NCBI GenBank assembly: GCA_963716585.1
Contig: CAVQTN010000002.1
Span: 389,730 to 453,729 of the forward strand
DNA: 64,000 bases
DNA from: an uncultured Chloroflexia bacterium
Lineage (GTDB): Bacteria; Chloroflexota; Limnocylindria; QHBO01
Direction of reading: 5' to 3'
The stretch's first letter is position 1. Each line of letters begins with the position of its first letter. The position numbers and the translations under genes are program-made. This document shows positions 5,727 through 64,000 of the stretch, piece after piece. The notes below the pieces were generated by a model. That model saw nothing but the letters and a program-made list of their open reading frames with translations. It was not told the DNA's origin and made no database searches.

Positions 5727-8182
5727 CGGCGCTCGAGCAGCGCGACCGGAAACGCGGCCAGCAGCTCGGCCAGCGGCACGCCGCGCGCGACCTGGCGCTC
5801 CTGCAGCAGGTCGTGCCAGGCTCCCGCCGGGAGCTGCAGCGTGGTGTCGCCCCACGACGAGAGTCCGGCCGCCAGGCGCGGCGCGACAACGGCCAGCGAG
5901 CGACTGCGCAGGAAGGCGACGACTCGATCGCCCCTCGCGCCCTCGACGGTCAGCGGCTGGTACGAGCCGGCGAAGGCCTCGGGCCGTTGGTTGCGCAACG
6001 CGAGGACGCGCCGAAGCAGCCACAGCTTGGCGAGGCCGTCGCCCGCGCGCTGCCAGGCCTCGGCCGCGGTCATGGGCCCGACCTCGTCCAGCAGCCGGCG
6101 ACGTGCGCCGAAGTCGACGGGCCGGCGGTTGTCCGGGTCGACCAGCGACCGCTCCCACAGCTCGCTGCCCTGGTAGATGTCCGGCACGCCTGCGGCGGTG
6201 AGCCGCAGCAGCAGGAGTGCCAGCGAGGTCCGGCGTGCCGCGTCCTCCAACGTGTCCACGAATGCGGCGACCTCGGCGGCGAACGCGGCATCTCGCAGGA
6301 CGCCGCGAACGAACGCCTCCAGCGCCGCGTCGTAGCGGGCGTTCGGCGCGGTCCAGGTCGTGTAGCGCTTCGCCTCGTGCGCCGCCTTGCGCATGTAGGC
6401 CACGGCCCGCTCGACGGAGATGGGCCAGGCGCCGACGAGCGTCTGGTAGAGCAGGTACTCGACGTTGCGGTCGGGCAGAGCGTCGGTGCGGTGACGTTCG
6501 GCCAGCGCCGACCAGCGCGCCACCGCCGCGCCCCATTCGACGGGGAGCTGCGACAGGAGCGCCAGCCGCGCCCGAACGTCCTCGCCGCGCTTCGTGTCGT
6601 GGGTGGTCCCCGCCAGCATCGTCCGGCGCGACGCCGCCGAGCACCAGGCATGGAACTCGGCGACCGACCGTCCGAAGCGCCCCGGATCGCCGCCGACCTC
6701 GTTGAGCGCCACGAGCCGGTGGTATCGGTAGAAGGCGGTGTCCTCGACGCCCTTGGCCATCGCCGGGTCGCTGAGCTGCTGGAAGCGCATCGCCAGGTCG
6801 CCGCCGCGCTCGCCGCCGGACCGCAGGGTCAGGATCTCCTCGAGGAAGCCGAAGAGCCCGGGATCCAGGTCGGGCCGATGCCCGCAGGCCTGTGCCACAG
6901 CCGCGCGGATGCGCCGCGCATCGGCATCGGTCAATTCGTGGACCTCCGCCCTGGCGTAGGTCCGATACACGTCGAACGAGGCAAGCACCTCGGTGAGCGC
7001 CTCGCGCAGCTCGTGCCGCGTGAAGTCACGATGCCGCCGGTCCGACTCGCAGACGGCGAGGAATCGGGCGGCCAGCCGGTTGAGGTCGCTGCCCAGCCGA
7101 TCGTGCAGGACCTGCAGCTTCGACGTCCGCGCGACCTCACCCCACGACGCCGTCTCGCCGGTGAATGACGTGTACAGCTCGGTGAGTGGCGTCTCGCCGG
7201 CCGGGTCCACAAAGAGGCCGAGCGCCAGGTTGGCGAAGTCGTAGCCGGTCGTTCCCTCGATCGGCCAGGCCTCCGGCAACGCTTCGCCAGTCGCCAGGAT
7301 CTTCTCGGCCAGCAGCCAGGCATGCGGCACATCGGCGCGCAGCCGCTCGAAATAGCCGGTCGGATCGCGCATGCCGTCCGGATGATCCACGCGCAGCCCG
7401 TCGACCGCGCCGGCCGCAATCTGGTCCAGGATCAGCGCGTGGGTCGCCTGGTAGACGTCGGCATCTTCCACCCGCAGACCGATGAGCGTGTCGACATCGA
7501 AGAAGCGGCGGTAGCCGAGGTCGCTCGCCGAGGCGGTCCGGCGCGCCAGGCGCCAGTGCTGCCGCCCGATGAGCGCGTCGAGCGCCTCCGGATCCGCATT
7601 GATGGCTGCCACCCGCTGCGCGACCCCGCCTTCGTCGGCTGACCACGGAACGGTGGCCGGGTCGATCGGGAATCGCGCGGCTTCATGCGCGACCTGCAGC
7701 TCGCCACCCTCCGAGACGAGCTGCAGCCCCCCGCACTCCAGGACCCGGCCGTAGTGGTCGGGCAGCACCGGCAGGAGGATCTTGCCGGTCAGGCGCGGCT
7801 CGGCCGGCTGCCAGTCGACGTCGAACGCCCGCGCGTGGCGACTCCCTTGTCCGTGCTTCAGGACGTCCCACCACCAGCGGTTCTGTGGAACCCCGATCGC
7901 CATGTGGTTCGGCACGATGTCGAGCAGCAGTCCCATGCCGTGTGCATGCAGTGCCTCGACGAGCGTCGCGAAGCCTGCCGCGCCGCCCAGCTCGGCACTG
8001 ATCGCCGCGTGATCCACGACGTCGTAGCCGTGCGTGCTGCCCGCGACGGCCTGAAGCACCGGGGAGCTGTAGAGGTGGCTGATCCCGAGGTCGGCCAGGT
8101 ACGGGACCAGCGCGGCAGCCTCGGCGAAGCGGAACTCCGCCCGAAGTTGCAGCCGGTAGGTGGCCCGCGGCTCGATCGACAT
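5723..8182 (-). CDS. treY: malto-oligosyltrehalose synthase (GH13)
   Basis: 819 aa. The N-terminus reads TYRLQLRAEFRFAEAAALVPYLADLGISHLYSSPVLQA, and GYDVVDH and LLLDIVPNHMA are present, as typical of TreY. Confidence 0.9.
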   Translation of the reverse strand: MSIEPRATYRLQLRAEFRFAEAAALVPYLADLGISHLYSSPVLQAVAGSTHGYDVVDHAAISAELGGAAGFATLVEALHAHGMGLLLDIVPNHMAIGVPQNRWWWDVLKHGQGSRHARAFDVDWQPAEPRLTGKILLPVLPDHYGRVLECGGLQLVSEGGELQVAHEAARFPIDPATVPWSADEGGVAQRVAAINADPEALDALIGRQHWRLARRTASASDLGYRRFFDVDTLIGLRVEDADVYQATHALILDQIAAGAVDGLRVDHPDGMRDPTGYFERLRADVPHAWLLAEKILATGEALPEAWPIEGTTGYDFANLALGLFVDPAGETPLTELYTSFTGETASWGEVARTSKLQVLHDRLGSDLNRLAARFLAVCESDRRHRDFTRHELREALTEVLASFDVYRTYARAEVHELTDADARRIRAAVAQACGHRPDLDPGLFGFLEEILTLRSGGERGGDLAMRFQQLSDPAMAKGVEDTAFYRYHRLVALNEVGGDPGRFGRSVAEFHAWCSAASRRTMLAGTTHDTKRGEDVRARLALLSQLPVEWGAAVARWSALAERHRTDALPDRNVEYLLYQTLVGAWPISVERAVAYMRKAAHEAKRYTTWTAPNARYDAALEAFVRGVLRDAAFAAEVAAFVDTLEDAARRTSLALLLLRLTAAGVPDIYQGSELWERSLVDPDNRRPVDFGARRRLLDEVGPMTAAEAWQRAGDGLAKLWLLRRVLALRNQRPEAFAGSYQPLTVEGARGDRVVAFLRSRSLAVVAPRLAAGLSSWGDTTLQLPAGAWHDLLQERQVARGVPLAELLAAFPVALLERR

Positions 8183-48883: not shown

Positions 48884-49338
48884 TGGTTCCTCTCGCTACT
48901 CGGTCGGGAGCGACGCTCCCCAGTCAAGCTTGTGACGGAGCACGATGCGGGCCAAGCCGCGACGGCCAAGGAGAGCCAGGCCGATCAGTTTCCGTCGCGC
49001 GGGCCGACGTCGGCGAGGCCGCCCTTACGACCACGATCGTCGGGAGTCGGTTGGCGCGGCAGACGGTCCCGGGTCGTGTTGTCGTGCGCGTCCCGCTCGG
49101 CCTGGTCGCTGATCCATCGCCGATCGCGTCGCAGTCGACGCCATAGCCATTTCATCACGCTCACCTCCGGGGCCCGCCCCGCGCAGTGCATACCACGCTG
49201 ATCGCCGCGGCGAGCGCCGCCACGCCCGTCATACCGAACACCACGATACTCGAACCCAGTCCGTCTCGCGGTGCGTTCCCCAGGACCAGAGTGGAGGCCC
49301 CGCTGCCACAGCAGCACAGGGGCAGCCGGGCCCGTGGG

Positions 49339-50421
49339 TCAGGGTCCTGGCACGTCGGTTGGAAGATTCTCAGTCGGGATCTTGGCAGCGGATCGTCGAG
49401 CCAGGAGCTCGCGCCCCTCGATGAGCCCGCCGGGTCGCAGGGCCAGGATCACAATCAAGGCGATCGCGAGGCAGACCTCCGTGAGCCCAACCACCTGGAA
49501 TGGCAGGAACTGGGCGATGTTGATCGTGTTCTCAACCCTTCGCAGGCCCTCGAACGCGAGGGTCACGATCCCGGTGCCGATGACGGCGCCCGACACGGTC
49601 GCCGGGCCTCCGACGATGAGCATCGTCAGGACGACGAACGTCTCCGTCAGGTAGAAGGCGCTCGATGAGAAGGACGTGATGAAGTGCGCCCAGAGAGCAC
49701 CGCCGAAGGCGACGATGAATGCCGACATCACGAATGCGGCCCAGCGCGTCCGCACGATGTCGATGCCTATGGTCGCGGCCGCGTAGGGGCTATCTCGCGA
49801 GGCGCGGAGCTTGAGCCCGAGCGTCGAATCCCTGAACAGGTATACGACCACGAGCACCATGAGCCCGGCGCTTGCGGCGGTCACCAGGTCCGTGTAGGGA
49901 AGCAGCCCGAACAAGGTCCTGGGCCCGTTGGTCACGTCGCTCCAATGGGCGAGGATGACGTGCACGATAACCAGCAGCGCGAAGGTCGCGATGACCGCCG
50001 CCGCGTCCGACAGCCGCATCAGCGGATAGCCAACCACCGCCGCAAACAGCGCTGCGACGCCCCCCGCGATGAGGCATGCCGGCAGGAATGGCAGCTGGAT
50101 GTGCACCAGCGGGGCGTACAGGGTCGGCAGAGCGAGTGCCTTGGCATCGGGGCTCATTGTCAGAATCGCGGAGGCATAGGCCCCGATGCCCATGAACCCG
50201 ATGTGACCGAACGACAGGACTCCGGAATTCCCGACGAACAGCTGGAGGCCCAGGACGAGAACCAGGCTGATGAAAGCGTCCGTCGCGATCCGCAGGACCA
50301 GGGGATCGCCAAGCAGCGACGCGGCACCGGCGACTGCGATCAGGATGGCCATGAGGACGACGAGGGGACGGTATCGGCCCACCAGGCTGCCAAGATCACG
50401 CACGGAAGCGAGGCGCATCAT
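49339..50421 (-). CDS. branched-chain-amino-acid-type (Liv/Urt family) ABC transporter permease
   Basis: 360 aa, polytopic (LSFGHIGFMGIGAYASAIL). Confidence 0.8.
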   Translation of the reverse strand: MMRLASVRDLGSLVGRYRPLVVLMAILIAVAGAASLLGDPLVLRIATDAFISLVLVLGLQLFVGNSGVLSFGHIGFMGIGAYASAILTMSPDAKALALPTLYAPLVHIQLPFLPACLIAGGVAALFAAVVGYPLMRLSDAAAVIATFALLVIVHVILAHWSDVTNGPRTLFGLLPYTDLVTAASAGLMVLVVVYLFRDSTLGLKLRASRDSPYAAATIGIDIVRTRWAAFVMSAFIVAFGGALWAHFITSFSSSAFYLTETFVVLTMLIVGGPATVSGAVIGTGIVTLAFEGLRRVENTINIAQFLPFQVVGLTEVCLAIALIVILALRPGGLIEGRELLARRSAAKIPTENLPTDVPGP

Positions 50422-51317
50422 GCGATCCGTTTCGCGGCTGCTCGGCCTCGCACAATGCCTTCCGGGCGTACGAGCAGAACGAGGATCACGATGGCAAACG
50501 TGAATGCTTCGCGAAAATCGAGCAGGCCCTGGGGCAGCACCGTCTCCATGCCCACCGTCAACAGACCGAGCAGGTAGCCACCGACCAATGCGCCGGTCAT
50601 GCCTTCCATCCCGCCGATAACGATCGCGATCAGGGCAATCAGGAGCGGCCCGCCGCCAATCGTCGGGTTCACTGAACCGATCCGGGCAATCCAGAACAAC
50701 CCGACCACCCCAGCCAGCACGCCGCTGATCGCGAACGCCGTCGCGATGACGCGGTCCGCGCGGATGCCGAGCAGGCGCGTCATCACGAAATCGTCGGATG
50801 CTGCGCGCAAGGCGATCCCGAGTGTCGACCGCCGTAGCACGAGGTTCAGCACCAGGAGGACACCGATGCTCACGAACAAGGTCAGGACATTGGCAACGCC
50901 AATCGAGACACCGGCGACCGTAATGTTCCCGGATAGGAGCTCGGGAATCGGAACTGCGCGGGGTCGTGGGGAGACGATCAGCAGCGCGGCATTCTGGAGG
51001 AGCGTGCTGACCGCAAACGAGGTGATGATCATGGCGCTGAGCGAGTTGGAACGGACGGGCCGGAAGGCGATCCGTTCCGTCAGCAGGCTGGCTCCCGCCG
51101 CGACCGCGATCGCAATCAACGCCACCGCCAGCCAGGGAAGCGGCCCATCACCCAAGACGAGCAGGGTGTAGCCGGCAACCATCAGCAGCTCACCGTAGGC
51201 CAGGTTCACGAGCCGAAGGACGCCGTAGACGATGACCATGCCGAGCGCCATCAACGCGTAGAGGCTTCCCAGGCTCAAGACGTTCAGCGTGAACTGGACC
51301 AGCCCGGCGAGGTCCAT
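50418..51317 (-). CDS. Liv/Urt-family ABC transporter permease
   Basis: 299 aa, polytopic (LAYGELLMVAGYTLLVL). Its start overlaps the upstream ATPase gene and its stop overlaps the next permease gene. Confidence 0.8.
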   Translation of the reverse strand: MDLAGLVQFTLNVLSLGSLYALMALGMVIVYGVLRLVNLAYGELLMVAGYTLLVLGDGPLPWLAVALIAIAVAAGASLLTERIAFRPVRSNSLSAMIITSFAVSTLLQNAALLIVSPRPRAVPIPELLSGNITVAGVSIGVANVLTLFVSIGVLLVLNLVLRRSTLGIALRAASDDFVMTRLLGIRADRVIATAFAISGVLAGVVGLFWIARIGSVNPTIGGGPLLIALIAIVIGGMEGMTGALVGGYLLGLLTVGMETVLPQGLLDFREAFTFAIVILVLLVRPEGIVRGRAAAKRIA

Positions 51318-52045
51318 CAGCCGCCTCCCGGTATGGGGCCGGAGCCCAGATAGACACGCGCGATGTCCACCTGGGATCGCACCTCGGCCGGCGCGCCGCT
51401 CGCCTCGATCGAGCCGGTTCGCAGCAGGTAGACGCGATCTGCGATCTCCAGCGTGCGCGTCACGTTCTGCTCGACGAGCAGGATCGTGACCCCCTCATCA
51501 CGAAGCTCCTTGACGAGGCGGAAGATCCTGTCGACCAGCGCCGGGGCGAGCCCGAGCGAGGGCTCATCCAGCATCAGGAGGCGCGGCCGCGAAAGCAGGG
51601 CGCGACCGATCGCGAGCTGTTGCTGTTCGCCGCCGGACAAGGTGCCGGCGCGCTGGGCTCGACGCTCGCCCAGGATTGGAAAGCGCTCGAACAGCGCTTC
51701 GGTGTCCACCCGGACAGCGGCCGCGTCTCGACGGAGGTACGAGCCCAGGCGCAGGTTCTCAGCAACCGTGAGGCTTGCGAAGATGCCGCGGCTTTCGGGG
51801 ACCATCGCCACGCCGCGCCGGGCGATCTCCTCCGGGGTGCGTCCGATGATGGACGATCCGAGAAACGAGATCTGGCCGCGGCTCGGCGCAACGACGCCTG
51901 CGATGGCACCCAGTGTGGTCGACTTGCCGGCGCCGTTCGCGCCGATGAGGGCGACGAGCTCCCCCTCGCCAACCTCGAGCGAAACGTCGCGGACCGCTGT
52001 GATCGAGCCGTAGCGCGCTCCGAGCCCCTCGACCTTCAGCACCTC
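51317..52045 (-). CDS. Liv/Urt-family ABC transporter ATP-binding protein (LivF-like)
   Basis: Walker A GANGAGKST, signature LSGGEQQQLAIGRAL, Walker B LLMLDEPSLGL. The start was set at the GTG overlapping the livG-like stop. The track ORF is over-extended to 52153. Confidence 0.8.
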   Translation of the reverse strand, partial: EVLKVEGLGARYGSITAVRDVSLEVGEGELVALIGANGAGKSTTLGAIAGVVAPSRGQISFLGSSIIGRTPEEIARRGVAMVPESRGIFASLTVAENLRLGSYLRRDAAAVRVDTEALFERFPILGERRAQRAGTLSGGEQQQLAIGRALLSRPRLLMLDEPSLGLAPALVDRIFRLVKELRDEGVTILLVEQNVTRTLEIADRVYLLRTGSIEASGAPAEVRSQVDIARVYLGSGPIPGGG

Positions 52046-52769
52046 AGGCCGCCGACCCTGCCGAAGTCCCGAGATACGCCTCGATGACGGCCGCGTCGCC
52101 CTGGATCTGATCCGCCGTGCCCTCGGCGATCGTCTGCCCGTGGGCAAGGACATGGATGCGATGGCACAGCCGCATGATCAGCCGCATGTCGTGATCGATG
52201 ACCAGGAGGCCGCGATCCGCGGTGCGCGGGATCTCGACCAGCCGATCCAGGAGCGCGTCTGTTTCGTCCTCGTTCAGGCCGGCTGCCGGTTCGTCGAGCA
52301 GGAGATAGCGGCAGCCCGTGGCAAGGGCGCGAGCGATCTCGACCATCCGCTCGAGTCCGTACGGAAGGGCACCGGCGAGCGAGTCGCGCAAGCTTGCCAG
52401 GCCCAGCCATTCGAGGAGATCAGCCGCTGTCCGCGAGGCCTCCCCTCTCGAGCGCCCAGCGCTCAGCGCGCCGACCTCGACGTTCTCCATGACCGTCAGG
52501 CTGCGGAACAGCTTGACCGACTGGAAGGTACGGGCGACTCCAGCTCGGGCGATGACATGCGCGGGCCGGCCGGCCACATCGACGTCATCCACCAGGATCC
52601 GACCCGCAGTCGGAGACAGCAGGCCGGTGACGACGTTGACGAGCGTGGTCTTGCCTGATCCGTTCGGCCCGATCAGGCCAAGGATCTCCCCCGGCCCGAA
52701 TCGGAGGCCCACGCCATTCAGGGCGCGGAGGCCGGCGAAGTCCTTCGTCAAGCCCTCGACGACAAGCAT
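52044..52769 (-). CDS. Liv/Urt-family ABC transporter ATP-binding protein (LivG-like)
   Basis: Walker A GPNGSGKTT, Walker B YLLLDEPAAGL, plus the LivG-type C-terminal extension. Confidence 0.8.
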   Translation of the reverse strand: MLVVEGLTKDFAGLRALNGVGLRFGPGEILGLIGPNGSGKTTLVNVVTGLLSPTAGRILVDDVDVAGRPAHVIARAGVARTFQSVKLFRSLTVMENVEVGALSAGRSRGEASRTAADLLEWLGLASLRDSLAGALPYGLERMVEIARALATGCRYLLLDEPAAGLNEDETDALLDRLVEIPRTADRGLLVIDHDMRLIMRLCHRIHVLAHGQTIAEGTADQIQGDAAVIEAYLGTSAGSAA

Positions 52770-52807
52770 TCAGGCGCGGCCGCAGCCCCGCCGGGCTGTC
52801 GCATGGG

Positions 52808-54028
52808 TCAGGGCTCGGGCACCCAGGTTGGGCGGAACCACCCATCGAATTTCGTCTTGCCGGCGGCGATCTCGGCGATCACCGCCTCCTTGTCGGGCCG
52901 GTGGCCGCCCGCCGCGTCCGACCAGGTGAGATGGCCCGTCAAGAGCGTGAACTCGGTTCCCTCCATGGCCTTGGCCATGGCCGCGCCATCGGTGCTGTTG
53001 GCCTTCGTCATCGCCTGAGCCATGACATTCACCACGTCCCATCCGGTGACGACGAACGCGGTGTCGGGATCCTTCTGGTATTCGGCCTTGTACAGGTCGA
53101 GAAACGCCGCGACGTTTGCGCCCGCATCGGCACTCATGAAGCTGTGGGTGACATAGAAGACGTCATTCCCACGATCGGGTCCCAGGACGACAGACAGCTG
53201 GGGATCGTCGTACGAGTCACCGCCCATGATCGGGGTGGTGATCCCGGCCGCGCGGATGGTCTTGATGATCGTCCCGAGGTCCGGCATGTACGACGAGATG
53301 TAGAGCACGTCCGGCTGCTTGGGCAGAGCCTTGATCCGTTGCAGCTGCGCCGAAAAATCCTGAGCGCCCTGGGTGTAGGTGTCCTCTGCGAACACCTCAC
53401 CACCGAGGTGCTTGAACGTGGCGATGAAGTAGCGGCTCAGGGACTTCGTGTAGTCGATGAACGTGTCGGTCACAACGTATGCCGTGCGCCAGCCCTTCTT
53501 CGCGTACGCGAATTCGGCCCCGGATGCGCCCATGGTCGTGTTCCACATCGAAAGGGTGAACTGCTTGTCGCCGAGCGACTTGGATCCGTAGAGGGGTGAG
53601 GACGCACAGGTGGAGATGCCGACGATGCCGGCTTTCTGTGCCTCGCGGCTGGCCGGGCCGCCGAAGTCGAAGTCACACGGCGCGATGATCGCCTTGGCGC
53701 CCTGCTGGATCAGCTCGAGCGCGACGTTCCCGACCACGACCGGGTCGCTCTTCCCGTCCAGGTTGATGAGCTCGACCTGCTTGCCGAGGATGCCGCCCTT
53801 CTTGTTCAGCTCCTTCACCGCAAGCTGGGCGCCACGCAGGCCCGGCTCGTCAAGCGGCGCCTGGATCCCGGTCAGGCTCAGCGTGGAGCCGATGAGGATC
53901 TTGTCGCCGGTCACGCCGCTGGCCGACGGACCAGGTGTCTGGGTACCGACTTGCGCGCCGCATGCCGCTACGATGAGCGCCACCGCGGTCAGGGCGGACA
54001 TCTGCTTGAGAAGCAAGCGATTCCCCAT
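52808..54028 (-). CDS. Liv/Urt-family periplasmic substrate-binding lipoprotein (amide/urea/amino-acid binding)
   Basis: The start is MGNRLLLKQMSALTAVALIVAAC (lipobox). A type-I periplasmic binding fold is present (ILIGSTLSLTGIQAPLDEPGLRGAQLAVKELNKKGGILGKQVEL). Confidence 0.8.
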   Translation of the reverse strand: MGNRLLLKQMSALTAVALIVAACGAQVGTQTPGPSASGVTGDKILIGSTLSLTGIQAPLDEPGLRGAQLAVKELNKKGGILGKQVELINLDGKSDPVVVGNVALELIQQGAKAIIAPCDFDFGGPASREAQKAGIVGISTCASSPLYGSKSLGDKQFTLSMWNTTMGASGAEFAYAKKGWRTAYVVTDTFIDYTKSLSRYFIATFKHLGGEVFAEDTYTQGAQDFSAQLQRIKALPKQPDVLYISSYMPDLGTIIKTIRAAGITTPIMGGDSYDDPQLSVVLGPDRGNDVFYVTHSFMSADAGANVAAFLDLYKAEYQKDPDTAFVVTGWDVVNVMAQAMTKANSTDGAAMAKAMEGTEFTLLTGHLTWSDAAGGHRPDKEAVIAEIAAGKTKFDGWFRPTWVPEP

Positions 54029-54090
54029 CAGACCAGTTCCTCCACCTGGCCCCCCGTTCTCGGCCGGCGGATGATAGCAGAATCGACCTG

Positions 54091-55137
54091 ATGCAAGAGG
54101 CACGAAGCGTGACCGATATCGTCCCGGTGACCCGGTTCGTCCCGACACCCCGGCAGTACGCCTGGACCTTCGGCGGCTGCGATCCGGTGATGCGGATCCG
54201 GCCCGGCGAAGTCATGGATCTCTTTACGGAAGACTGCTTCGCGGGGCACATCAGAACAGCAGCGGACCTGCCTGCCACCTCGATCGAATACCCCTTCATC
54301 AACCCGCAGACTGGCCCGTTCTTCGTCGAGGGTGCGGAACGCGGGGACACGCTGGCCATCCATCTCGTCGACGTTCAGCCGGCACGTGACTGGGCGGTGA
54401 GCACCACGGTGGCTCTGTTTGGAGCGCTGACCGGCACGAAGTTCACCGCCACCCTCCAGCCCGCTCTCCCGGAGCGGACCTGGATCTATCGCGTCGACGC
54501 GGCCACTCGGGAGGTCATCTTCGAGGCGCTCGACTCGGACTTCCCGGTGCGCCTCCCCCTCGAGCCCTTCCACGGGACCATCGGCGTTGCCCCGGCGGCG
54601 TACGAGGTCCGCAACGTCCTCGTCCCGGAGGCGTTCGGCGGCAACATGGACACGCGTGAAGCGCGGGCCGGGACGACCATCTATCTCGGCGTCAACGTCC
54701 CGGGCGCGCTCTTCTCGCTGGGCGACGGTCACTACACGATGGGCGACGGCGAGGCGTGCGGCGTCGCGGTCGAAGGAGCGATGAACACGCGCCTCACCGT
54801 TGACGTGATCAAGGGCGTCTACTGTGAGTGGCCGCGCCTCGAAGACGACGACTGGGTCATGGTGGCGGGCTCGTATCGCCCGCTGGAGGATGCGTTCAGG
54901 ATCGCCCAGACACAACTGGTCCGCTGGGTGGCCTCCGAGACCGGCCTCTCGGAGATGGACGCCTACCAGCTCGTTTCCCAGGCCGGGCGCTCGTCGATCG
55001 CGAACGTCTGCGACGCCAACTACACCATCGTCGCCAAGATGCCGAAGCGAGTCCTTCCGCACGACATCCCGTGGATGGGCGCGGCACATGACCGGCTGGC
55101 GGCCATCGGTCGGCGGGTCTCGATCGCTACGCCCTGA
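54091..55137 (+). CDS. acetamidase/formamidase-family amidohydrolase (FmdA/AmdA)
   Basis: 348 aa (FFVEGAERGDTLAIHLVDV...GGNMDTRE...GDGHYTMGDGEACGVAVEGAM). Confidence 0.85.
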   Translation: MQEARSVTDIVPVTRFVPTPRQYAWTFGGCDPVMRIRPGEVMDLFTEDCFAGHIRTAADLPATSIEYPFINPQTGPFFVEGAERGDTLAIHLVDVQPARDWAVSTTVALFGALTGTKFTATLQPALPERTWIYRVDAATREVIFEALDSDFPVRLPLEPFHGTIGVAPAAYEVRNVLVPEAFGGNMDTREARAGTTIYLGVNVPGALFSLGDGHYTMGDGEACGVAVEGAMNTRLTVDVIKGVYCEWPRLEDDDWVMVAGSYRPLEDAFRIAQTQLVRWVASETGLSEMDAYQLVSQAGRSSIANVCDANYTIVAKMPKRVLPHDIPWMGAAHDRLAAIGRRVSIATP

Positions 55138-55164
55138 GCAGGCAGGTTGTGGCCGCGCCGACGT

Positions 55165-56021: not shown

Positions 56022-56093
56022 ATTGGCTGGGGCGGAAGGATTCGAACCTTCGATCTCCTGATCCAGAGTCAGGCGCCTTACCGCTTGGCCACA
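56022..56093 (-). tRNA. tRNA-Gln (anticodon CUG)
   Basis: The minus-strand sequence TGGGGTG-TG-GCCAAGCGGTAAGGC-G-CCTGA-CTCTGGA-TCAGG-AGATC-GAAGG-TTCGAAT-CCTTC-CGCCCCA-G folds as a cloverleaf. It has a 7-bp acceptor stem with one G-U pair, anticodon loop CUCUGGA, and a T-loop GGTTCGAATCC. CCA is not encoded. Confidence 0.8.
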
Positions 56094-56174
56094 CCCCAGC
56101 GCGCGTGCCGAAGGATTCTACCAAAGAGGCCGTTCCTGCCTCCTCCTGGTCTTCTCGCCGGCCGCAACCGGCCC

Positions 56175-57361
56175 CTAGGCGACGACGCGCTCGGCACGTA
56201 CCGGAATCGCGGCAGCGGCCACGAACGGGAAGGCGACCACGCTGGCGAAGGCAACGCCGTAGCCGAAGGCTCCCCCGCCGGCCAGGCCGATGATGATGGC
56301 CAGCGGCGTGGCGACGACGGTGGCGACCAGGTTCTGGAACGTGTTCTGGACGCCCAGCGCCCGTCCCGCCCATCGCGGCCCAGCTCGCTCGGCTACCGCG
56401 GTGAAAGCCAGCCCGTTGGGCGAGACCGTGATCATGGCCGCCACAGCCAGCGCAACGACCGATGCGCCGGAGCCTGCCATGGCGAGCACGCTAAGCATGG
56501 CCATCGCCAGGCCGATGGCCAGCGCCACGAGGCGCATCGGTCCAAGACGGGAGCGGACGCGATCCGACCAGTAGCCGGCCGCCAGCCGCGTGGCGGCGCC
56601 GACCAGCTGGGTGATCGCCAGCAGGATGCCGGCGCCGCCGAGCGACCAGCCGCGGCCGGTGACCAGGTAGTCGAAGGCGAAGATCGCGACGGCGAACTGC
56701 GGAATGACGAGGCACGCGCTGGCGGCATGGATGCGCCACAGGTAGGCCGTCCGATACGGCGAACCGTCTTGCGGCGCACCGGCCACCCGGGCGGGCCGCT
56801 GCGGATCGCGCACGACCAACCCGATGAGTACCGCGGTGACCAGGCAGGCCGCCCCCAGCCCGCCAAGGGCGGCGCCCAGGCCAATGGTGGCCAGCGACGG
56901 CAGGACGAGCGCGGCGGCGGCCACACCGAGCGGCTGGCCGGTCTGCCGGATGCCCATCGCCAGGCCGCGCTCCTGAACGTCGAACCAGCCCAGGATCAGC
57001 CGTCCGCTGGCGGCGTGGATGGCGGCACCGCTGGCACCCGCCAGGAAGAGGCAGATCCAGCGTTGCAGCGGATCGGGCAGCTGTGCCGCGGTCAGCAGCG
57101 CCAGCCCGGCGCCGGCGAGGCCGAGAGTCAGGACCAGGCGCTCGCCCCATCGGTCAGCCGCCGCGCCCCAGGCGATGAGCGCCACCAGCACGCCAAAGAC
57201 CGGCGCGATGACCAGGGTGGTGGCCGCCTCGAGCGGGAGCCCCTCGGAGCGCAGTGCCGGGATCAGGTAGGCAAGGCCGTACTGCGAGGCACAGCCGGCG
57301 ATCAGGCCGGTGAGGCCCACCGCCAGCACGACCCAGCGCTGCGCCCCGTTCTCGGTGGTCA
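56175..57361 (-). CDS. MFS-family transporter
   Basis: Twelve predicted TM helices. The start was set at the GTG at 57361 (VTTENGAQRWVVLAVGL). The first 100 or so codons of the track ORF are Arg/Gly junk. Confidence 0.7.
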
Positions 57362-57373
57362 CTGCCCCTCTAC

Positions 57374-58465
57374 TCAGGCGCTGTGGACCGCCAGCACGTT
57401 GTGCGCGGGAACCGGCCGGCTCATGCCCTTCAACGTCAACTCGCCGACCTCCTCGACCTCGACCAGTCCCTCGACCATGGCATAGGCGCGCTGCGTGAGC
57501 AGGATCTGGTCGGGCGCCGCCTGGCTGCTCAGCCGCGAGGCCATGATCACCACGTTGCCGATGGCGCCGTAGTCGTAGCGTCCTTCGAAGCCGATGCGCC
57601 CCAGCGTCGCGTAGCCGACCGCGATGCCCACCCCCAGGCCCATCTCGTAGCCACGCTTGCGCCACTCGCTGGCCACCGGCTGGAACCGCTCGCGCACGGT
57701 GAGCGCCATGCGCACGGCGCGCTCGACGTGATCCGGCTGCAGGACCGGATCGTTGAAGAACGTCATCACCCCGTCGCCGGCGAAGTGCTCGAGCGTGCCC
57801 TCGTGCTCCAGGATCGCGGTGCCGATGAGTCGGTGGTACTCGCCCAGCACCCCGAACAGCTCCTCCGGCTCCGCCTGCTCGGCGAACGTGGTGAAGCCGC
57901 GCAGGTCGCAGAAGACCGCCGTGATCTGGCGCCGATGCCCGCCGAGCAGCTGCTCGCCCTCCGCCGACGAGATGAGGGCCGAGATCTGCGGCGACAGGAA
58001 TCGACTGAGCTCCTGCTTCTGACGTTCGATCGTGTCATTGAGCGCGGTCTGGCGTGCGAGATACTCCTGCTCCAGGTCGTGCATCCGTTTCGCCGCCAGC
58101 GAGGCGTTGATCCGGGCTCGCAGGATGCTCGGCTCGATGGGTTTGGCGAGATAGTCGGTCGCGCCCAGCTCGATGCATCGCACCACGCTCTCGAGCTCTT
58201 CGACGCCGGAGACGATGATGACCGGGATGTGGCGGATGGCCGCGTCCTCTTTCATCGCCGCGAGGGTCTGGTAGCCGTCGAGCTCGGGCATCAGTACGTC
58301 GAGCAGGACGACGTCGATGGCGGCCGGCTGCGCTCGCAGCAGCTCCAGCGCGGCCATCCCGTTCTCAGCCTGCAGCACCTTCAGCCCCAGTGCCTCGAGC
58401 TGGCGGACCAGGACGAGCCGGTTGACGAGGCTGTCGTCGACGACGAGCGCGATGCCGTTGCTCAT
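57374..58465 (-). CDS. response-regulator receiver fused to a class III adenylate/guanylate cyclase
   Basis: The REC domain reads ALVVDDSLVNRLVLVRQLEALGLKVLQAENGMAALELL...DVVLLDVLMPELDG...ATDYLAKP. The cyclase domain reads ITAVFCDLRGFTTFAE...LEHFAGDGVMTFF...GLGVGIAVGYA. The start [11 protein letters not shown] overlaps the Hpt stop. Confidence 0.8.
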   Translation of the reverse strand: MSNGIALVVDDSLVNRLVLVRQLEALGLKVLQAENGMAALELLRAQPAAIDVVLLDVLMPELDGYQTLAAMKEDAAIRHIPVIIVSGVEELESVVRCIELGATDYLAKPIEPSILRARINASLAAKRMHDLEQEYLARQTALNDTIERQKQELSRFLSPQISALISSAEGEQLLGGHRRQITAVFCDLRGFTTFAEQAEPEELFGVLGEYHRLIGTAILEHEGTLEHFAGDGVMTFFNDPVLQPDHVERAVRMALTVRERFQPVASEWRKRGYEMGLGVGIAVGYATLGRIGFEGRYDYGAIGNVVIMASRLSSQAAPDQILLTQRAYAMVEGLVEVEEVGELTLKGMSRPVPAHNVLAVHSA

Positions 58466-58830
58466 GTAGCCCGATCCCGCCACGCGCGCAGCGCCTGGAG
58501 CGTTGCCTCCCACTCCACGGCGAGCCCGGCGAGGTCGTCGGCGGCGCCGTCCAAAGCATCCTCCCGTCCCGCGGCCTCGAGGCGTCGCGCACGAGCCGCC
58601 AGGCGCTGCGCCCCGACCGTGGCGCTGCTCGACTTCAGCGTGTGCGCCGGCCGTACCACCGACGCGGCATCGTGCGCGTCCGCCGCGGCCTGGATCTCGG
58701 CGATCTGGCGCGGCGCATCGCCGAGATAGGTGTCGATCAGATCGACGACGAAAGCGCTGTCGCCGCCGACCGAGGCCGCCAGCTCGGCCAATGCAACGTC
58801 ATCGAGGAGGGGGAGCTCAGGCTCGGGCAC
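58462..58830 (-). CDS. Hpt (histidine phosphotransfer) domain protein
   Basis: 122 aa. The phospho-His context is [26 protein letters not shown], which is typical of Hpt. Confidence 0.75.
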
Positions 58831-61800
58831 GTGATTTCCTCTTGCGCGGGGACCCGGGTTGCGCGGCCGGCACTCTCATTGGCGTCCGCTCCAGGGCGGC
58901 CGCCAGCTCCGGGGGGCGGATGGGCTTGCTCAGGTAATCGTTCATCCCAGCGGCCAGGCACGCCTCGCGGTCGCCGGCCATGGCGTTGGCGGTCATGGCC
59001 ACGATCCACAGCGGCCGACTCCGGCCAGCGGGAGCGGATCGCGCGCGTGGCACCGAGTCCGTCGAGCTCGGGCATCTGGACGTCCATGAGCACCACGTCG
59101 AACGGCGTCGCGCTCGAGTGCCGCGATCGCCTGCAGCCCATCGGCTGCCACCTGCGCGGTGTAACCGAGCTGCGCCAGCAATCGCAGGGCGAGCTTCTGG
59201 TTCACGGCGTTGTCCTCGGCCAACAGGATGCGCAATGGATTGCGCTCGCCAAGCAGGCCGTCATCGTTCGTCGCGACCTTGCCCGGCGCGGGACGCCGCG
59301 TCACGACCGGCGCCGAGCAGGATCGTGGCAATGGTGTCGTGCAGCGCCGACGGCTTGACCGGCTTCGCCAGCCAGTCCGTCACCGGACCGCCATCCCGGT
59401 CCCGCATGCCGACCGACGACAGGATCACCAGCGGTGTCTGCTGACGATGCGCCGTCTCATCGACGGCGCGGACGCGTTCCGCGAGCTCGACTCCGTCCAG
59501 CTCTGGCATCAGCAGGTCGAAGAGGGCGATGTCGAAGCGCTCGCCGTGCTCGAGCCATTCGAGCGCCTCGAGCGGCGAGCCCGTCTCGCGCGGCACCATC
59601 CCCCAGCGCGCGGTCTGCGCCACGAGGATGCGGCGATTCGTGGCGTTGTCATCGACGATCAGCGCCGTTCGTCCGCTCGAGGTCAGCCTCGATCCGCGCC
59701 GGTCGACTGGGTGCCACCGCATCTGGCGCGGCGAGCGGCATGCGGACCGAAAGATGGAAGACGCTCCCCTCTCCGGGGACGCCCTGGCTCTCGACAGTCA
59801 GCGAGCCATCCATCAGCTCCGCGAGCCGGCGGCTGATGGCGAGGCCGAGGCCGGTGCCGCCGTATCGGCGCGCAATCGACGCATCGGCCTGGCTGAAGGA
59901 CTGGAAGAGCCGATCCATGGCAGCCGCCGGGATACCAATGCCCGTGTCGCGAATGTCGATGCGGACCTCGCAGCGACCCAGGCTGCCGCGCTTCGGACGC
60001 TTCGATCTGGGTTCCGCCGACCGTCACGACGACCTCGCCCTGCTCGGTGAACTTGACGGCGTTCGAGAGCAGGTTGAGGAGCATCTGGCGCAACCGGCCC
60101 GCGTCGCCGACCAGGGCGGCGGGAAGCTCCTCGTCGACGGCGTAGACCAGCTCGAGGCCCTTCTTGGCAGCAGCCGGCGCGATGATGTCGAGCGAGACCT
60201 CGATGGCGTCGCGCAGGTTGAACGGGGCGTTCTCGAGATCGACGCGCCCCGCCTCGATCTTCGAGAAGTCGAGCACGTCGTTGATGATCGTCAGCAGCGC
60301 GTCACCCGACGTGCGGATCGTCTCGGCGAAGTCGCGCTGCTCCTCGTCGAGCGGTGTGTCCATCAGCAGCCCCGACATGCCGATGATGGCATTCAGCGGC
60401 GTCCGGATCTCGTGGCTCATGGCCGCCAGGAAGCTGCTCTTGGCCTCGTTGGCCTGCTCGGCGGCGTCTACGCGACTCCTGGGCCTCGCCGAAGAGGCGC
60501 GCATTCTCGAGCGCGATGGCCGCCTGCTGCGAGAGCCCGACCAGGAAGCTCAGGTCGGCGTTGCTGAACGGCGTCGGCGAGTCGGTCCGCCACATCGCCA
60601 GCATGCCGGCGACGGCTCCGCGGACCACGAGTGGCGCCGCCATGAGGCGTTCGGCGCCGTGCTGCTGCGTGCCCTCGATGGTCATCGCCCGAGGATCCGC
60701 ATTGGGGTCGTTGATGGCCTCTGCCGTACCGGTAACGGCAATATCACCCAGGATGCCGGCGCCACGGGTGATCAGGGAGGCGCGCAGCTGCTCGGCGATG
60801 TCTCCCTGTGCCGACGACCGCCCGGAACCTCTCGCCGTCCTGTTCCGGCAGATAGATCGCGGCGGCATCGGCGCGCAGCAGCCGAATGGCGCGCGAGGCG
60901 ATGACGTCGAGCACCGTCGACAGGTCGAGCGTCGCGGAGATCTCGCGCCCGACGTCGGCGAGCCCCGCCATCTCGTCGGCGCGGCGCCGGGTCTCGTCGT
61001 ACAACCGTGCGTTCTGGACCGCGACGCCGACGTTCGCGGCAATCGTCGCGAGCAGCCGCGCATCGGCGTCGCCGAAGCGGCTGTCGCTGGTGGTGCTCTG
61101 CACGCTGATGGCGCCGATGGCCCGGTCGCCTACCAGGATCGGCACGCCCAGGTACGACCGCGCGCGCGTTCCGACGCCTCGCTCCCCAGCGTCTCCCAGT
61201 CCGATTCGCTGTTGAGCAGCAGCGGCGCGCGGCCCGCGATCACGCGGGACGTCAGTCCGGTGCCCAGCGGCAGCGGATCCTGGCGCTCGTGGGTTCCACG
61301 CTCGACGTAGAACGGAAAGTCGATGACTCCGTGACTCCTCGTCGAGGAGCGCCACGTAGGTGATGTCGGCGTCGAAGGCATCGCGCGTCTTCTCGCCGAC
61401 GAGCGCCAGCAGCGGCTCGACCTCCATGCGCGCGGTCAGCGCCTCGCCCACGGTGTTGATCGTTCCAAGCTCGCCGACACGCTGGCGTGTCTCGTCGATG
61501 AGCCGACCCGTTCGCAGTGCCACGCTGAGGCTGGCCGCAATCGTGGTCAGCAGGGAGACATCGGCCTCGTTGAAGGCATATTCGCGGTCGAGGTTCTGGA
61601 GCGAGATGACGCCTAGGATCTCGTCGCCCAGGACGAGCGGGGCGAAGATCGCCGAGCGGGCCGGCTCACCGCTGAGCTGTGAAGGCTGGCCCAGCTCTGC
61701 CCCGACCTCGCGAAGGTCGTGGGTGATGAGCAACGGTTCCCGCGTCTCGATCACCCGCTTGCGGAAGCCCATCACCGGCCGCGACTCGACCGGATAGCGC

Positions 61801-64000
61801 TTGCCACGCTCCAGCGTGAACGGGAATTCCATCGTCTGGGTCGTCGCGTCGTAGACGGCGATGTCGACCACCTGCGTGTCGAAGACGTCGCTCGCGCGCT
61901 CGCCGACCAGCTCGTACATCGCCTGCACATCGACCTCGGCGGCGAGCCGGCGCTGCACGCTGTTGACGATCGCCAGCTCGGCGGCGCGCCGGTCGGTCTC
62001 CGCCAGCAGCCGCTTCGTCTCGTCGAAGAGACGAGCGTTCTCGAGCGCGACGCTGAGGCTCGACGTGAGCGTCGTCAGCAGTCGCACATCCGAGTCCGAG
62101 AAGGCGTCCTCGCGATCGATGTTCTGCAGCGAGATGACGCCTCGAGCCTCGTCCCCGACGATCGAGTGGAACCCACAGGCCCGACTGCGGCGCTTCACCT
62201 TGAACCACGCAGTGCCCAGGCGTGCTCCTGAAAGACACTCTGGATGTCGCGACCGATGAGCAGCGGCTGGCGCGTCTCCATCACGTGGGCTCGCAACCCG
62301 CCGATGGGCTGCGGCTCGTCAGGCAGACGCTCACCGCGCTCGATGGTATACGGATAGCGGATGAGCCCGGCTTGACGGTCGACGATGCCGATGTCGACGA
62401 CCTGCGCGTCGAAGATCTCCTGGATCTTGTCGCCGACGAGGTCGTACATCGCCTGCATGTCGAGCTGCGACGCAAGCCCCTGCTGGACGCTGTTGACGAC
62501 CGCCAACTCGGCCGCCCGCTCGATCGGTCTCGGTCAGAAGGCGCTTCGTCTCGTCGAAGAGCCGCGCGTTCTCGAGCGCCACGCTCAGGCTGGCGGCCAG
62601 CGTCGACAGGAGGCGCACGTCCGCTTCGGAGAATGCGTTCGTCCGATCCAGGTTCTGGAGCGAGATGCGGCCCCGAACCTCGCCGGCGGCGAACAACGGC
62701 GCCGCCACCAGGCTGAGTGCCGGCTCGCCCTGGATCGGTTGCAGGTCCTGTCCGGTTTCCACGTTCCAGGCGGGGACGTCGGCGATGTAGATCGGCTCCG
62801 CGCGCTCGATCAATTGCGCCGAATAGCCATGGACCGGCACCGGTTCATCGGGATAGCGTACGCCGCGCTCGATGGCGTACGGGAAGTGAATCAGGTTCGA
62901 CGCGGTGTCGATGATGCCGATGTCGACGACCTGCGCGTCGAAGATCTCCTGGATCTTGTCGCCGACGAGCTCGTACATCGACTGCATGTCGAGGTTCTGC
63001 GGCCAGCCCCTGCTGGACGCTGTTGACGACCGCCAGCTCGGCGGCGCGCTCGTCGGTCTCGGCCAGCAGGCGCTTCGTCTCGTCGAAGAGGCGGGCGTTC
63101 TCGAGCGCCACGCTGAGGCTGGAGCCAGCGTGGTGAGGAGGCGCACATCGGAATCCGAGAAGGCGTGCTCGCGGTCGAGGTTCTGGAGCGAGATCCGCCC
63201 GCGGATCTTCCCGTCGCCGAAGAGCGGCGCCATCACGAGGCTCCTGGACGGTTCACCCTGGGTGATGACCGTGCCGCCGGCGTGTTCGCTTGTCCCAAGC
63301 GTCGTAGTCGGGGATCAGCACCACCGAGCCGGTGCGGATCAGCTCGGAGGAGAGCCCGGAGCCCTCCAGCGTGGTCGGCTCGGTCGCGGAAAGCGCACCC
63401 CGCGCTCGATGGCGTAGGGGTAGCGCACCAGCCCGGCGTCGAAATCGAAGATGCCGATGTCGACGACCTGCGCGTCAAAAATCTCGCGGATCTTGTCGCC
63501 CACCAGTTCGTACATCGCCTGCATGTCGAGGTTCTGGGCCAGCCCCTGCTGGACGCTGTTGACCACCACCAGCTCGGCCGCGCGCTCGTCAGCCTCGCCC
63601 AGCAGCCGCTTCGTCTCGTCGAACAGCCGAGCGTTCTCGAGCGCCACGCCCATGCTCGATGCGACCGTGCTGAGGAGCCGCTCGTCGCTTTCGGAATAGG
63701 CATTCGGCTTCAGGTTTTCGAGGCCGATGATGCCGATCACCCGCTCGCCGGCGAGGATCGGCACGCCGAGCCATGACTCCGACGCCGGTCCCGCCACCAC
63801 GATCGCGTCGCTGGCTGCCGTATCGTCCAGCCTGCCGAGGCGCAGCGGCGCGCGCGATGCGATGACCTTGGAGGTGAGGCCCTGCCCCAGCTGAATCGGC
63901 TCGCTGTGCAGCCGATCCCCCTCGGCGATCTCATACGGGAACCGGATGACGTTGGTCGCCTCGTCGTAGAGGGCGACAAACAGCGAGGTCGCGTCGAAGA
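58817..64000 (-). CDS. hybrid sensor histidine kinase with at least 7 tandem GAF domains, HisKA, HATPase_c, and two receiver domains; N-terminus beyond the window end; reading frame interrupted at several points
   Basis: The pieces in the track are as follows. GAF modules of about 175 aa recur with a period of about 525 nt between 60300 and 64000 ([43 protein letters not shown]...[22 protein letters not shown]). HisKA and HATPase_c lie at 59649-60504 ([19 protein letters not shown] ... [17 protein letters not shown], then after a frame change [23 protein letters not shown]). REC1 is at 59261-59722 and REC2 is split over three frames (58817-59331). Confidence 0.6.

Follow-up and report, generated by a model that had tools for sequence, protein, structure and literature searches.

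Three adjacent genes at the end of a 64,000-nucleotide stretch of contig CAVQTN010000002.1 (the whole stretch analysed, called the window below) encode a hybrid histidine kinase with a long array of GAF domains, a stand-alone histidine phosphotransfer (Hpt) protein, and a receiver (REC) domain fused to a class III nucleotide cyclase. As the best explanation overall, and a likely one, the operon serves as a His-Asp-His-Asp phosphorelay onto the REC-cyclase, the breaks in the kinase reading frame being consensus errors. All of the phospho-acceptor residues are present and the trio is kept together; therefore, the four-step relay appears to be the best reading of the residues and the gene order. 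The host of the operon is a soil member of the Chloroflexota, class ‘Candidatus Limnocylindria’.

Domain organisation of the three proteins

In a preliminary description of this DNA, three adjacent and co-oriented genes had been proposed, which is borne out, all of them lying on the minus strand. A Pfam search of the stitched translations, set beforehand as a check of that description, recovered GAF, HisKA, HATPase_c, Response_reg, Hpt, and Guanylate_cyc, with every match above the gathering score. The G+C content is 68-71% across the region. The ATGA-style overlaps described before hold for the Hpt/cyclase junction only (58465-58462), whereas the kinase stop TGA (58819-58817) and the GTG start of the Hpt gene (58830) form a 14-nt overlap; a AAGAGGAAA ribosome-binding site lies upstream of this GTG. 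Since stop and start codons overlap and the genes are tightly packed, a translationally coupled operon is suggested. The cyclase most likely starts at ATG 58465, the start called in public data, rather than at GTG 58513.

With its frame pieces stitched, the kinase shows seven GAF domains (2 + 3 + 2), a HisKA, a HATPase_c, and two Response_reg domains in the window, so that the domain content described earlier (at least seven GAF domains, HisKA-HATPase, and REC-REC) is confirmed by Pfam. The features of a hybrid histidine kinase are present, namely the H-box His, the N, G1, and G2 boxes, and the receiver acceptor Asp residues (FDLLMPE and LMDVQMPE). Both receivers contain the acidic pocket, the acceptor Asp, the Ser/Thr, and the Lys, and the second is interrupted by two indels in the window. 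The GAF array consists of direct repeats with a spacing of 528-531 nt and an identity of 60-88%. It was recovered by a direct-repeat search, while Tandem Repeats Finder over 57000-64000 returned nothing because the GAF unit of about 530 nt is longer than its maximum period. Every unit closes with a helix, the unit ends were mapped onto the window, and the unit period in orthologues is 176-177 amino acids (aa).

The N-terminus of the kinase in the window strain was deduced from locus L001, which, like locus L002, lies on contig_9433 (European Nucleotide Archive ERZ25039577). The gene start in L001 is only about 0.7 kb upstream of the matching point, in disagreement with the earlier claim that the first half of the array lies past 64000; nor is there room for the extra N-terminal domain raised there, only about 1.3 GAF units and a short helical N-terminus being left, as judged from L001. 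By this colinearity, the window strain has eight GAF units with about 0.7 kb of the gene beyond 64000, and the full-length kinase would be about 1,950 aa. In intact orthologues, about 40-60 helical N-terminal residues lead straight into the first GAF, and neither another sensor or membrane domain nor a hydrophobic segment was seen at their N-terminus; therefore, the GAF sensor looks cytoplasmic and the kinase soluble.

The second protein matches the Hpt family PF01627 (E=4.3e-16; 59.4 bits versus a cut-off of 24.6) and carries His63 (codon CAC, 58644-58642) in the motif AHTLKSS, which agrees with the HxxK(G/S) pattern. Contig_9433 encodes an Hpt protein and a cyclase protein that are each identical to those of the window.

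The third protein, 100% identical to the public protein P0001, matches Response_reg PF00072 (E=4e-25; 88.6 bits versus a cut-off of 30.2) and Guanylate_cyc PF00211 (E=2.8e-18; 66.6 bits versus a cut-off of 21.9; profile positions 7-173 of 183). The stand-alone Hpt and the REC-class III cyclase of the preliminary description are both upheld by these matches. Residues D10, D11, D56, S86, and K108 of the receiver are invariant among 55 family members. In the AlphaFold model (mean predicted local distance difference test score, pLDDT, 85.8), aa 5-107 adopt the alternating beta-alpha fold of a receiver, and the last receiver helix runs on as a 45-residue helix, followed by two short helices before the cyclase domain. 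The best Foldseek match of this model is Pseudomonas aeruginosa CyaB (3R5G), with a target-normalised template modelling (TM) score of 0.83, a root mean square deviation of 2.7 Å, and 34% identity. Cya2, CyaC, Ma1120, and Rv1625c are also matched, the catalytic domains of Cya2 and CyaC with a target-normalised TM score of about 0.8, and whole-chain matches are found to the REC-helix-GGDEF proteins WspR and DgcR. The alignment with the phytochrome-cyclase 6FHT begins at aa 146 and so takes in the linker. The family score, the cyclase homology fold, and both metal-binding Asp residues place the protein among the class III cyclases.

The active site of the cyclase

In the residue-by-residue alignment of the REC-cyclase with CyaB 3R5G (phmmer E=1.3e-32), the two metal-binding Asp residues are kept as D187 (FCDLRGF) and D231 (AGDGVM), both invariant, and Arg311 is kept as well. 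The adenylyl-specific pair of Lys and Asp (or Thr/Ser in class IIIb) is absent, its positions being taken by His227 and Gly300, and the transition-state Asn-Arg pair is reduced to Arg311, with Ile307 at the Asn position. No exception to H227, D231, I307, or R311 occurs across the 55 family sequences, in which G300 reaches at least 90% conservation. Among the 150 nearest representatives, which are 50%-identity clusters, the Lys position is usually Arg or His with Lys in a handful only, the second position is Gly, Ala, Ser, or Thr, and the Asn is usually kept. Ile for Asn marks a sub-clade, in which 14 representatives have the same six-residue signature and three more have the Ile; this sub-clade also occurs with other N-terminal regions.

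Ma1120 from Mycobacterium avium is an active adenylyl cyclase with Ala in place of the Asn, and restoring the Asn lowers its activity (PMC4215837). Therefore, loss of the transition-state Asn is compatible with activity. The guanylyl cyclase Cya2 has Gly at the second specificity position (PMC4215837). The Limnocylindria enzyme probably makes a 3',5'-cyclic purine nucleotide. Cyclic AMP (cAMP) is the default guess, with a little over half of the probability, and about a quarter is left to another nucleotide or to no catalysis, the remainder being unassigned. Of the cAMP synthesis claimed earlier, the class III cyclase domain stands, whereas cAMP itself is unproven, with three of the six catalytic positions non-canonical relative to CyaB. 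No characterised cyclase matching the His/Gly and Asn-to-Ile combination was found, and we know of none with His/Gly base-recognition residues together with this replacement.

Relatives and conservation of the gene trio

More than 7,999 relatives of the cyclase protein were recorded at E<=1e-10, and identity is 75-100% for the best 120 of them; the few named ones are ‘Candidatus Limnocylindria’ or Chloroflexota metagenome-assembled genomes (MAGs), in soil-type metagenomes. The order kinase-Hpt-cyclase, with the same overlaps, is found in at least five related contigs (Table 1), and the flanking genes differ. The intact orthologue kinases (L083, L084, and L085) contain 10-11 GAF domains, HisKA, HATPase_c, and two REC domains.

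In MAGs of Dehalococcoidia, an uncultured actinobacterium, Chthonomonadaceae, and Desulfobaccales, the gene immediately after a histidine kinase gene encodes a less closely related REC-cyclase (37-46% identity), and the search revealed no Hpt at these four loci. In locus L005 (3018-11005; Chloroflexota MAG SHND01000060.1), an Hpt is fused to a multi-GAF kinase, which is followed by a REC-cyclase of 38% identity. The distant loci come from a contig scan with the generic receiver patterns MPE[LM]DGY and CIELGATD, and no close relative is among the matches listed.

Integrity of the kinase gene

Along the homologous reading path, the kinase has 16 frame changes between 59015 and 63385, all of them single-base indels, of which 13 are +1 insertions and three are -1 deletions. 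The hybrid kinase claimed earlier is thus present in its domains but not as a single open reading frame (ORF) in the window. The domain sequence is well preserved on either side of every break, and large deletions are absent.

Over 8 kb, L001 and the window share 98.9% identity, and the C-terminal 4.3 kb of the L001 kinase form one ORF of 1429 aa. The 14 one-base gaps between the two sequences all fall within 59016-63125, with none in the Hpt, cyclase, or major facilitator superfamily (MFS) transporter gene. The L001 kinase, in turn, is frame-broken many times in its N-terminal 1.5 kb (L001 4267-5725), where the window is single-frame (63387-63998). Since each copy is intact where the other is broken, the breaks in one assembly are independent of those in the other. 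Codon position 3 holds most of the 63 substitutions that separate the window and L001 kinases (50, versus 11 at position 1 and two at position 2); 50 are synonymous and the remaining 13 are mostly conservative replacements. Judged from the codons, this pattern is one of purifying selection and is irreconcilable with neutrality long enough for 16 indels. Because the L001 copy is intact, the substitutions are mostly synonymous, and the orthologues are intact, the 16 frame breaks are most likely consensus or assembly errors in a gene that is functional in the organism.

Similar errors are seen elsewhere. Compared with contig_9433, the window has two more indels (+G at 49402 and -C at 49285), which both fall within short runs of a single base and shorten a branched-chain-type ABC permease (minus-strand ORF 49339-50421) to 360 aa from the 478 aa of L002; this looks like another assembly error in the window. 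Sister assemblies of the same accession series also contain one-base artefacts, namely a false Hpt-cyclase fusion (L085) and a split kinase (L086). The former, a 487-aa Hpt-REC-cyclase protein in public data (P0037, L085 10001-11464), had resembled evidence of the Rosetta-stone kind and was rejected as a fusion: the normal Hpt C-terminus (LGAWVAAEEAR, followed by a stop codon) is present in another frame, and therefore a one-base indel near the end of the Hpt gene made the apparent fusion.

As to the origin of the breaks, 10 or 11 of the 12 insertions that were placed against L001 adjoin a third codon position by codon arithmetic, so that each can be read as both alleles of a synonymous single-nucleotide polymorphism (SNP) kept together. 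The window differs from contig_9433 by about 1.5% in the kinase (58817-63178; 63 SNPs) and by about 0.14% in Hpt and cyclase (57374-58816; 2 SNPs in 1.46 kb); this divergence is roughly ten-fold higher in the kinase and almost all synonymous, and the mosaic limited to the kinase suggests recombination or strain mixing there. A consensus from mixed strains that differ mainly in the kinase gene would fit the third-position insertions, the kinase-confined synonymous divergence, and the 528-531-nt internal repeats. By eye, no common motif (methylation site or homopolymer) was seen at the insertion sites. Frameshifts outside the kinase were counted by alignment to L002, because GC3 frame tracking and GC filters by codon position, applied to the entire window, gave too noisy a signal for this purpose.

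The L086 kinase is frame-broken once, at about 5690-5830. Spurious antisense ORFs of 488 aa and 267 aa, with no Pfam match, are called over the broken kinase stretches of L001 and L086; both are long contigs with Flye-style names.

The proposed phosphorelay and its alternatives

In the proposed relay, a cytoplasmic cue would act on the GAF rod and set the autophosphorylation of the H-box His. The phosphoryl group would then pass to a receiver Asp of the kinase, to His63 of the Hpt, and finally to Asp56 of the cyclase. Phosphorylation of this receiver would shift the long linker helix of a homodimer, by which the cyclase domains may be switched on or off. From the architecture and by analogy with CyaC, such a phosphorylation-dependent repositioning of the helical dimer, opening or closing the cyclase sites, appears to be the best-supported mode of control. 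For the four-step relay claimed in the preliminary description, the acceptor residues are found in all three proteins and the trio is kept in five contigs, while the phosphotransfer itself is a prediction.

Several observations weigh against the overall explanation. The two complete receivers in the kinase make the phosphoryl route ambiguous. The solved GAF domains nearest to the kinase units are those of DosT/DevS, with E values of only 1e-7 to 1e-5, and on inspection the units have in common neither a His that could bind heme nor a Cys for the attachment of bilin, for which reason GAF domains of the heme or bilin type were rejected. Three of the six canonical class III positions of the cyclase are replaced (Lys by His227, Asp/Thr by Gly300, and the transition-state Asn by Ile307). 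The deposited window holds no intact kinase ORF, and the reading path runs through 17 frame segments. Moreover, the kinase has 16 indels in 5.2 kb and the flanks have 2 in 11.2 kb, a density about 17 times higher in the kinase, so that 16 of the 18 indels fall in 32% of the sequence (binomial p ~1e-6), and the indels are mostly insertions outside homopolymers, unlike the usual long-read error profile.

The paired receivers would suit a different wiring, in which phosphoryl groups go straight from the kinase to the cyclase receiver and the two kinase receivers are phosphate sinks or regulators, or in which the Hpt pools several hybrid kinases; the four distant MAGs where a REC-cyclase directly follows the kinase, with no Hpt detected, point the same way. 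This wiring is nevertheless unlikely, since the Hpt is kept between kinase and cyclase with stop/start overlaps in all five Limnocylindria contigs, the multi-GAF kinase of L005 includes a fused Hpt domain of its own, and hybrid kinases usually require an Hpt to pass the phosphoryl group to a separate receiver. The phosphorelay may also be real while its output is not an adenylyl cyclase, either making cyclic GMP (cGMP) or a pyrimidine cyclic nucleoside monophosphate (cNMP), or being slow or inactive as an enzyme, a pseudo-cyclase with signalling through phosphorylation-dependent dimerisation or nucleotide binding. The replacement of the CyaB residues by His, Gly, and Ile, their conservation in the 55 members, the rarity of Lys among the 150 nearest representatives, the existence of the Ile sub-clade, and the Gly shared with the guanylyl cyclase Cya2 (PMC4215837) make this possible but not probable. 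On the other hand, dead enzymes seldom retain both metal-binding Asp residues and the Arg, as this protein does, and Ma1120 is an active adenylyl cyclase without the Asn (PMC4215837); in addition, PycC models do not outscore the generic Pfam cyclase model, and the neighbouring genes include no Pycsar effector. It is doubtful that the Limnocylindria receiver-cyclase clade, with its almost invariant His/Gly/Ile signature, is no adenylyl cyclase at all and makes cGMP or a pyrimidine cNMP under the control of the phosphorelay, in a housekeeping and non-defence role. Membership in the Pycsar systems was rejected (PADLOC PycC up to 66 bits versus 66.6 for Pfam; the neighbours are the Hpt and MFS transporter genes, with no effector).

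Taken at face value, the 16 frame changes of the deposited sequence would make the kinase a true, heavily frameshifted pseudogene, and the Hpt and REC-cyclase would be orphans that are fed by other kinases or are being lost. The concentration of the breaks in the kinase, with Hpt, cyclase, and 11 kb of flanks nearly indel-free, is in line with this. A neutral gene, however, should show changes independent of codon position, and the 50 synonymous versus 13 non-synonymous substitutions, with only two at codon position 2, do not have this form. Real bacterial gene decay is deletion-biased, which is opposite to 13 of 16 breaks being +1 insertions. A contig of about 99% identity is intact where the window is broken and broken where it is intact, and other one-base indel errors occur in the window. 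A pseudogene is therefore very improbable, and the dead-kinase alternative named in the preliminary description is contradicted by the synonymous-dominated substitutions and the intact near-identical copy.

Comparison with known signalling systems

CyaC from Spirulina platensis and Anabaena (class IIIb) resembles the present system in having a class III cyclase directly C-terminal to a receiver, with GAF domains and a histidine kinase in the pathway, and its catalytic-domain structure (1WC1) is matched by the REC-cyclase model. CyaC is a single polypeptide with two GAF domains and no Hpt, whereas here three proteins, 8-11 GAF domains, and a His-Asp-His-Asp order are found; as a class IIIb enzyme, CyaC has the canonical Lys/Thr/Asn/Arg set, in contrast to His/Gly/Ile/Arg in the Limnocylindria cyclase family. 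CyaC is activated by phosphorylation of its receiver, both by its intrinsic kinase and by the separate kinase AphC (PMC3009899), and its control by His-Asp phosphotransfer is credited to Kasahara and Ohmori (1999) as reference B70 in PMC1183210. Receiver-controlled class III cyclases are thus known (CyaC, and AphC acting on CyaC; PMC3009899), and distant REC-cyclases also follow kinases, so that the architecture is not as unusual as had been suggested.

The kinase core and receiver score best against the models of BarA, TorS, LuxQ, ArcB, and RcsC, and the Hpt scores best against the Hpt regions of TorS, LuxU, and ArcB; the relay logic is predicted to be alike. Membership in the BarA, TorS, ArcB, or LuxQ equivalogs was rejected because the scores lie far below the cut-offs (NCBIfam BarA 414 bits versus 890; TorS 410 versus 676), and no equivalog covers any of the three proteins. 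Unlike BarA, TorS, ArcB, LuxQ-LuxU, and RcsC-RcsD, the present system takes its input through a soluble GAF array instead of a sensor in the periplasm or membrane, and its terminal regulator is an enzyme rather than a DNA-binding protein.

The layout of a receiver, a long helix, and a nucleotide-cyclase fold is shared with WspR (3BRE, 3I5A), PleD, and DgcR (6ZXB), in agreement with the full-length Foldseek matches to WspR and DgcR, and a phosphorylation-driven rearrangement of the dimer is a likely mode of activation in common with these REC-coiled-coil-GGDEF regulators. In contrast to them, the output is a PF00211 class III domain and not GGDEF, and the product would be a mononucleotide cNMP instead of c-di-GMP. 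In Dictyostelium, the histidine kinase-RdeA-RegA system is a multistep phosphorelay ending in a receiver that controls an enzyme of cAMP metabolism (PMC3783435). RegA, however, is a phosphodiesterase that degrades cAMP, and this eukaryotic system has no homology to the present one as an operon. Dictyostelium ACR contains a histidine kinase, two receivers, and a class III cyclase, but its two-component parts are largely vestigial (PMC3009899).

Among solved catalytic domains, P. aeruginosa CyaB 3R5G is the closest, with Lys, Thr, and Asn where the REC-cyclase has His, Gly, and Ile. The structures compared are catalytic domains only (3R5G, 198 residues; Ma1120, about 165-190), and the full-length P. 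aeruginosa CyaB and Ma1120 are not known to have a receiver. Stigmatella aurantiaca CyaB, as reportedly described by Coudart-Cavalli et al. in 1997, is an N-terminal receiver fused to a class III cyclase; it is not known to have a defined cognate kinase or Hpt. In the literature searched, neither a characterised bacterial relay with a stand-alone Hpt feeding a REC-cyclase nor a study of the Limnocylindria cyclase family was found. Ma1120 resembles the REC-cyclase in lacking the transition-state Asn, but it keeps the Lys and the Asp (PMC4215837). Overall, receiver-controlled class III cyclases, hybrid-kinase/Hpt relays, and long GAF arrays are each already known, and the combination is uncommon in its output.

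Features of the locus and neighbouring genes

Table 1. Features of the kinase-Hpt-cyclase operon in the window, and related contigs that carry the three genes.
Feature	Position	Strand	Details
REC + class III cyclase gene	57374-58465	minus	Pfam; ATG 58465, TGA 57376-57374, 363 aa
Receiver domain of cyclase	58145-58453	minus	aa 5-107; acceptor Asp56 codon 58300-58298
Linker	57941-58132	minus	aa 112-175; DSSP on model: helices 112-156, 159-165, 168-175
Class III cyclase homology domain	57386-57934	minus	aa 178-360; D187, H227, D231, G300, I307, R311
Stand-alone Hpt gene	58462-58830	minus	Pfam; GTG start 58830, 122 aa
Hybrid histidine kinase gene	58817-64000 (5' end cut by window edge)	minus	Three-frame translations, frame-segment chain, Pfam on stitched pieces
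GAF array	60502-64000	minus	Pfam GAF/GAF_2/GAF_3; 7 units in window, the first partial; period ~528-531 nt (176-177 aa)
HisKA	60247-60444	minus	Pfam E=2.9e-24; H-box SHEIRTPLN, His codon 60414-60412; coordinates mapped through L001
HATPase_c	59739-60108	minus	Pfam E=4e-27; N box NLLSNA.KF, G1 DTGIGI, G2 GGTGLGL
Kinase receiver 1	59350-59665	minus	Pfam Response_reg E=1.3e-13; LIVDDN ... ALFDLLMPE ... ILSS ... LAKPVK
Kinase receiver 2	58892-59229	minus	Pfam Response_reg E=4e-25 (stitched); ILLAEDN ... VLMDVQMPE ... AMTA ... LSKPIR
16 frame breaks in kinase (approximate)	63385, 63280, 63123, 63000, 62521, 62209, 62163, 61331, 61186, 60811, 60470, 59997, 59678, 59311, 59107, 59015	minus	Frame-segment chain
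contig_9433 (L001)			Kinase-Hpt-cyclase; C-terminal 1429 aa of kinase intact
contig_2995 (L083)			Kinase 2319 aa, intact
contig_6163 (L084)			Kinase 2507 aa, intact
contig_17710 (L085)			Kinase 2293 aa, intact
contig_16288 (L086)			Kinase split by one frame break

The MFS transporter gene (56175-57362, minus strand) starts 11 nt past the cyclase stop and may be co-transcribed with the operon. In L083, an MFS gene and an FAD-binding monooxygenase gene lie upstream of the kinase, and these are absent at the other loci. The sole tRNA in the window, tRNA-Gln (CTG) at 56024-56098 on the minus strand, lies between the MFS gene and a cupredoxin-like gene. Further downstream of the operon, 50418-55137 holds a formamidase/acetamidase gene, a five-gene periplasmic-binding-protein ABC transporter, and then ferritin. 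Between the cupredoxin-like and formamidase genes, contig_9433 has an extra 216 nt (L002 13310-13525) that are absent from the window (55153-55157); this intergenic difference is a strain-level structural difference.

Implications

Consensus errors in a gene that is long, internally repetitive, and variable between strains are the best explanation of the apparent kinase decay. Therefore, pseudogene calls in such assemblies need checking against synonymous and non-synonymous patterns and against sister contigs. As a signalling system, the operon extends a well-understood modular design and introduces no new principle; its most intriguing feature is the active-site signature, and the cyclase sub-clade is a natural experiment on how far the canonical class III active site can be dispensed with. 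If the relay is true, an abundant uncultured class of soil Chloroflexota couples a very large cytoplasmic GAF sensor to cyclic-nucleotide synthesis by a full His-Asp-His-Asp relay.

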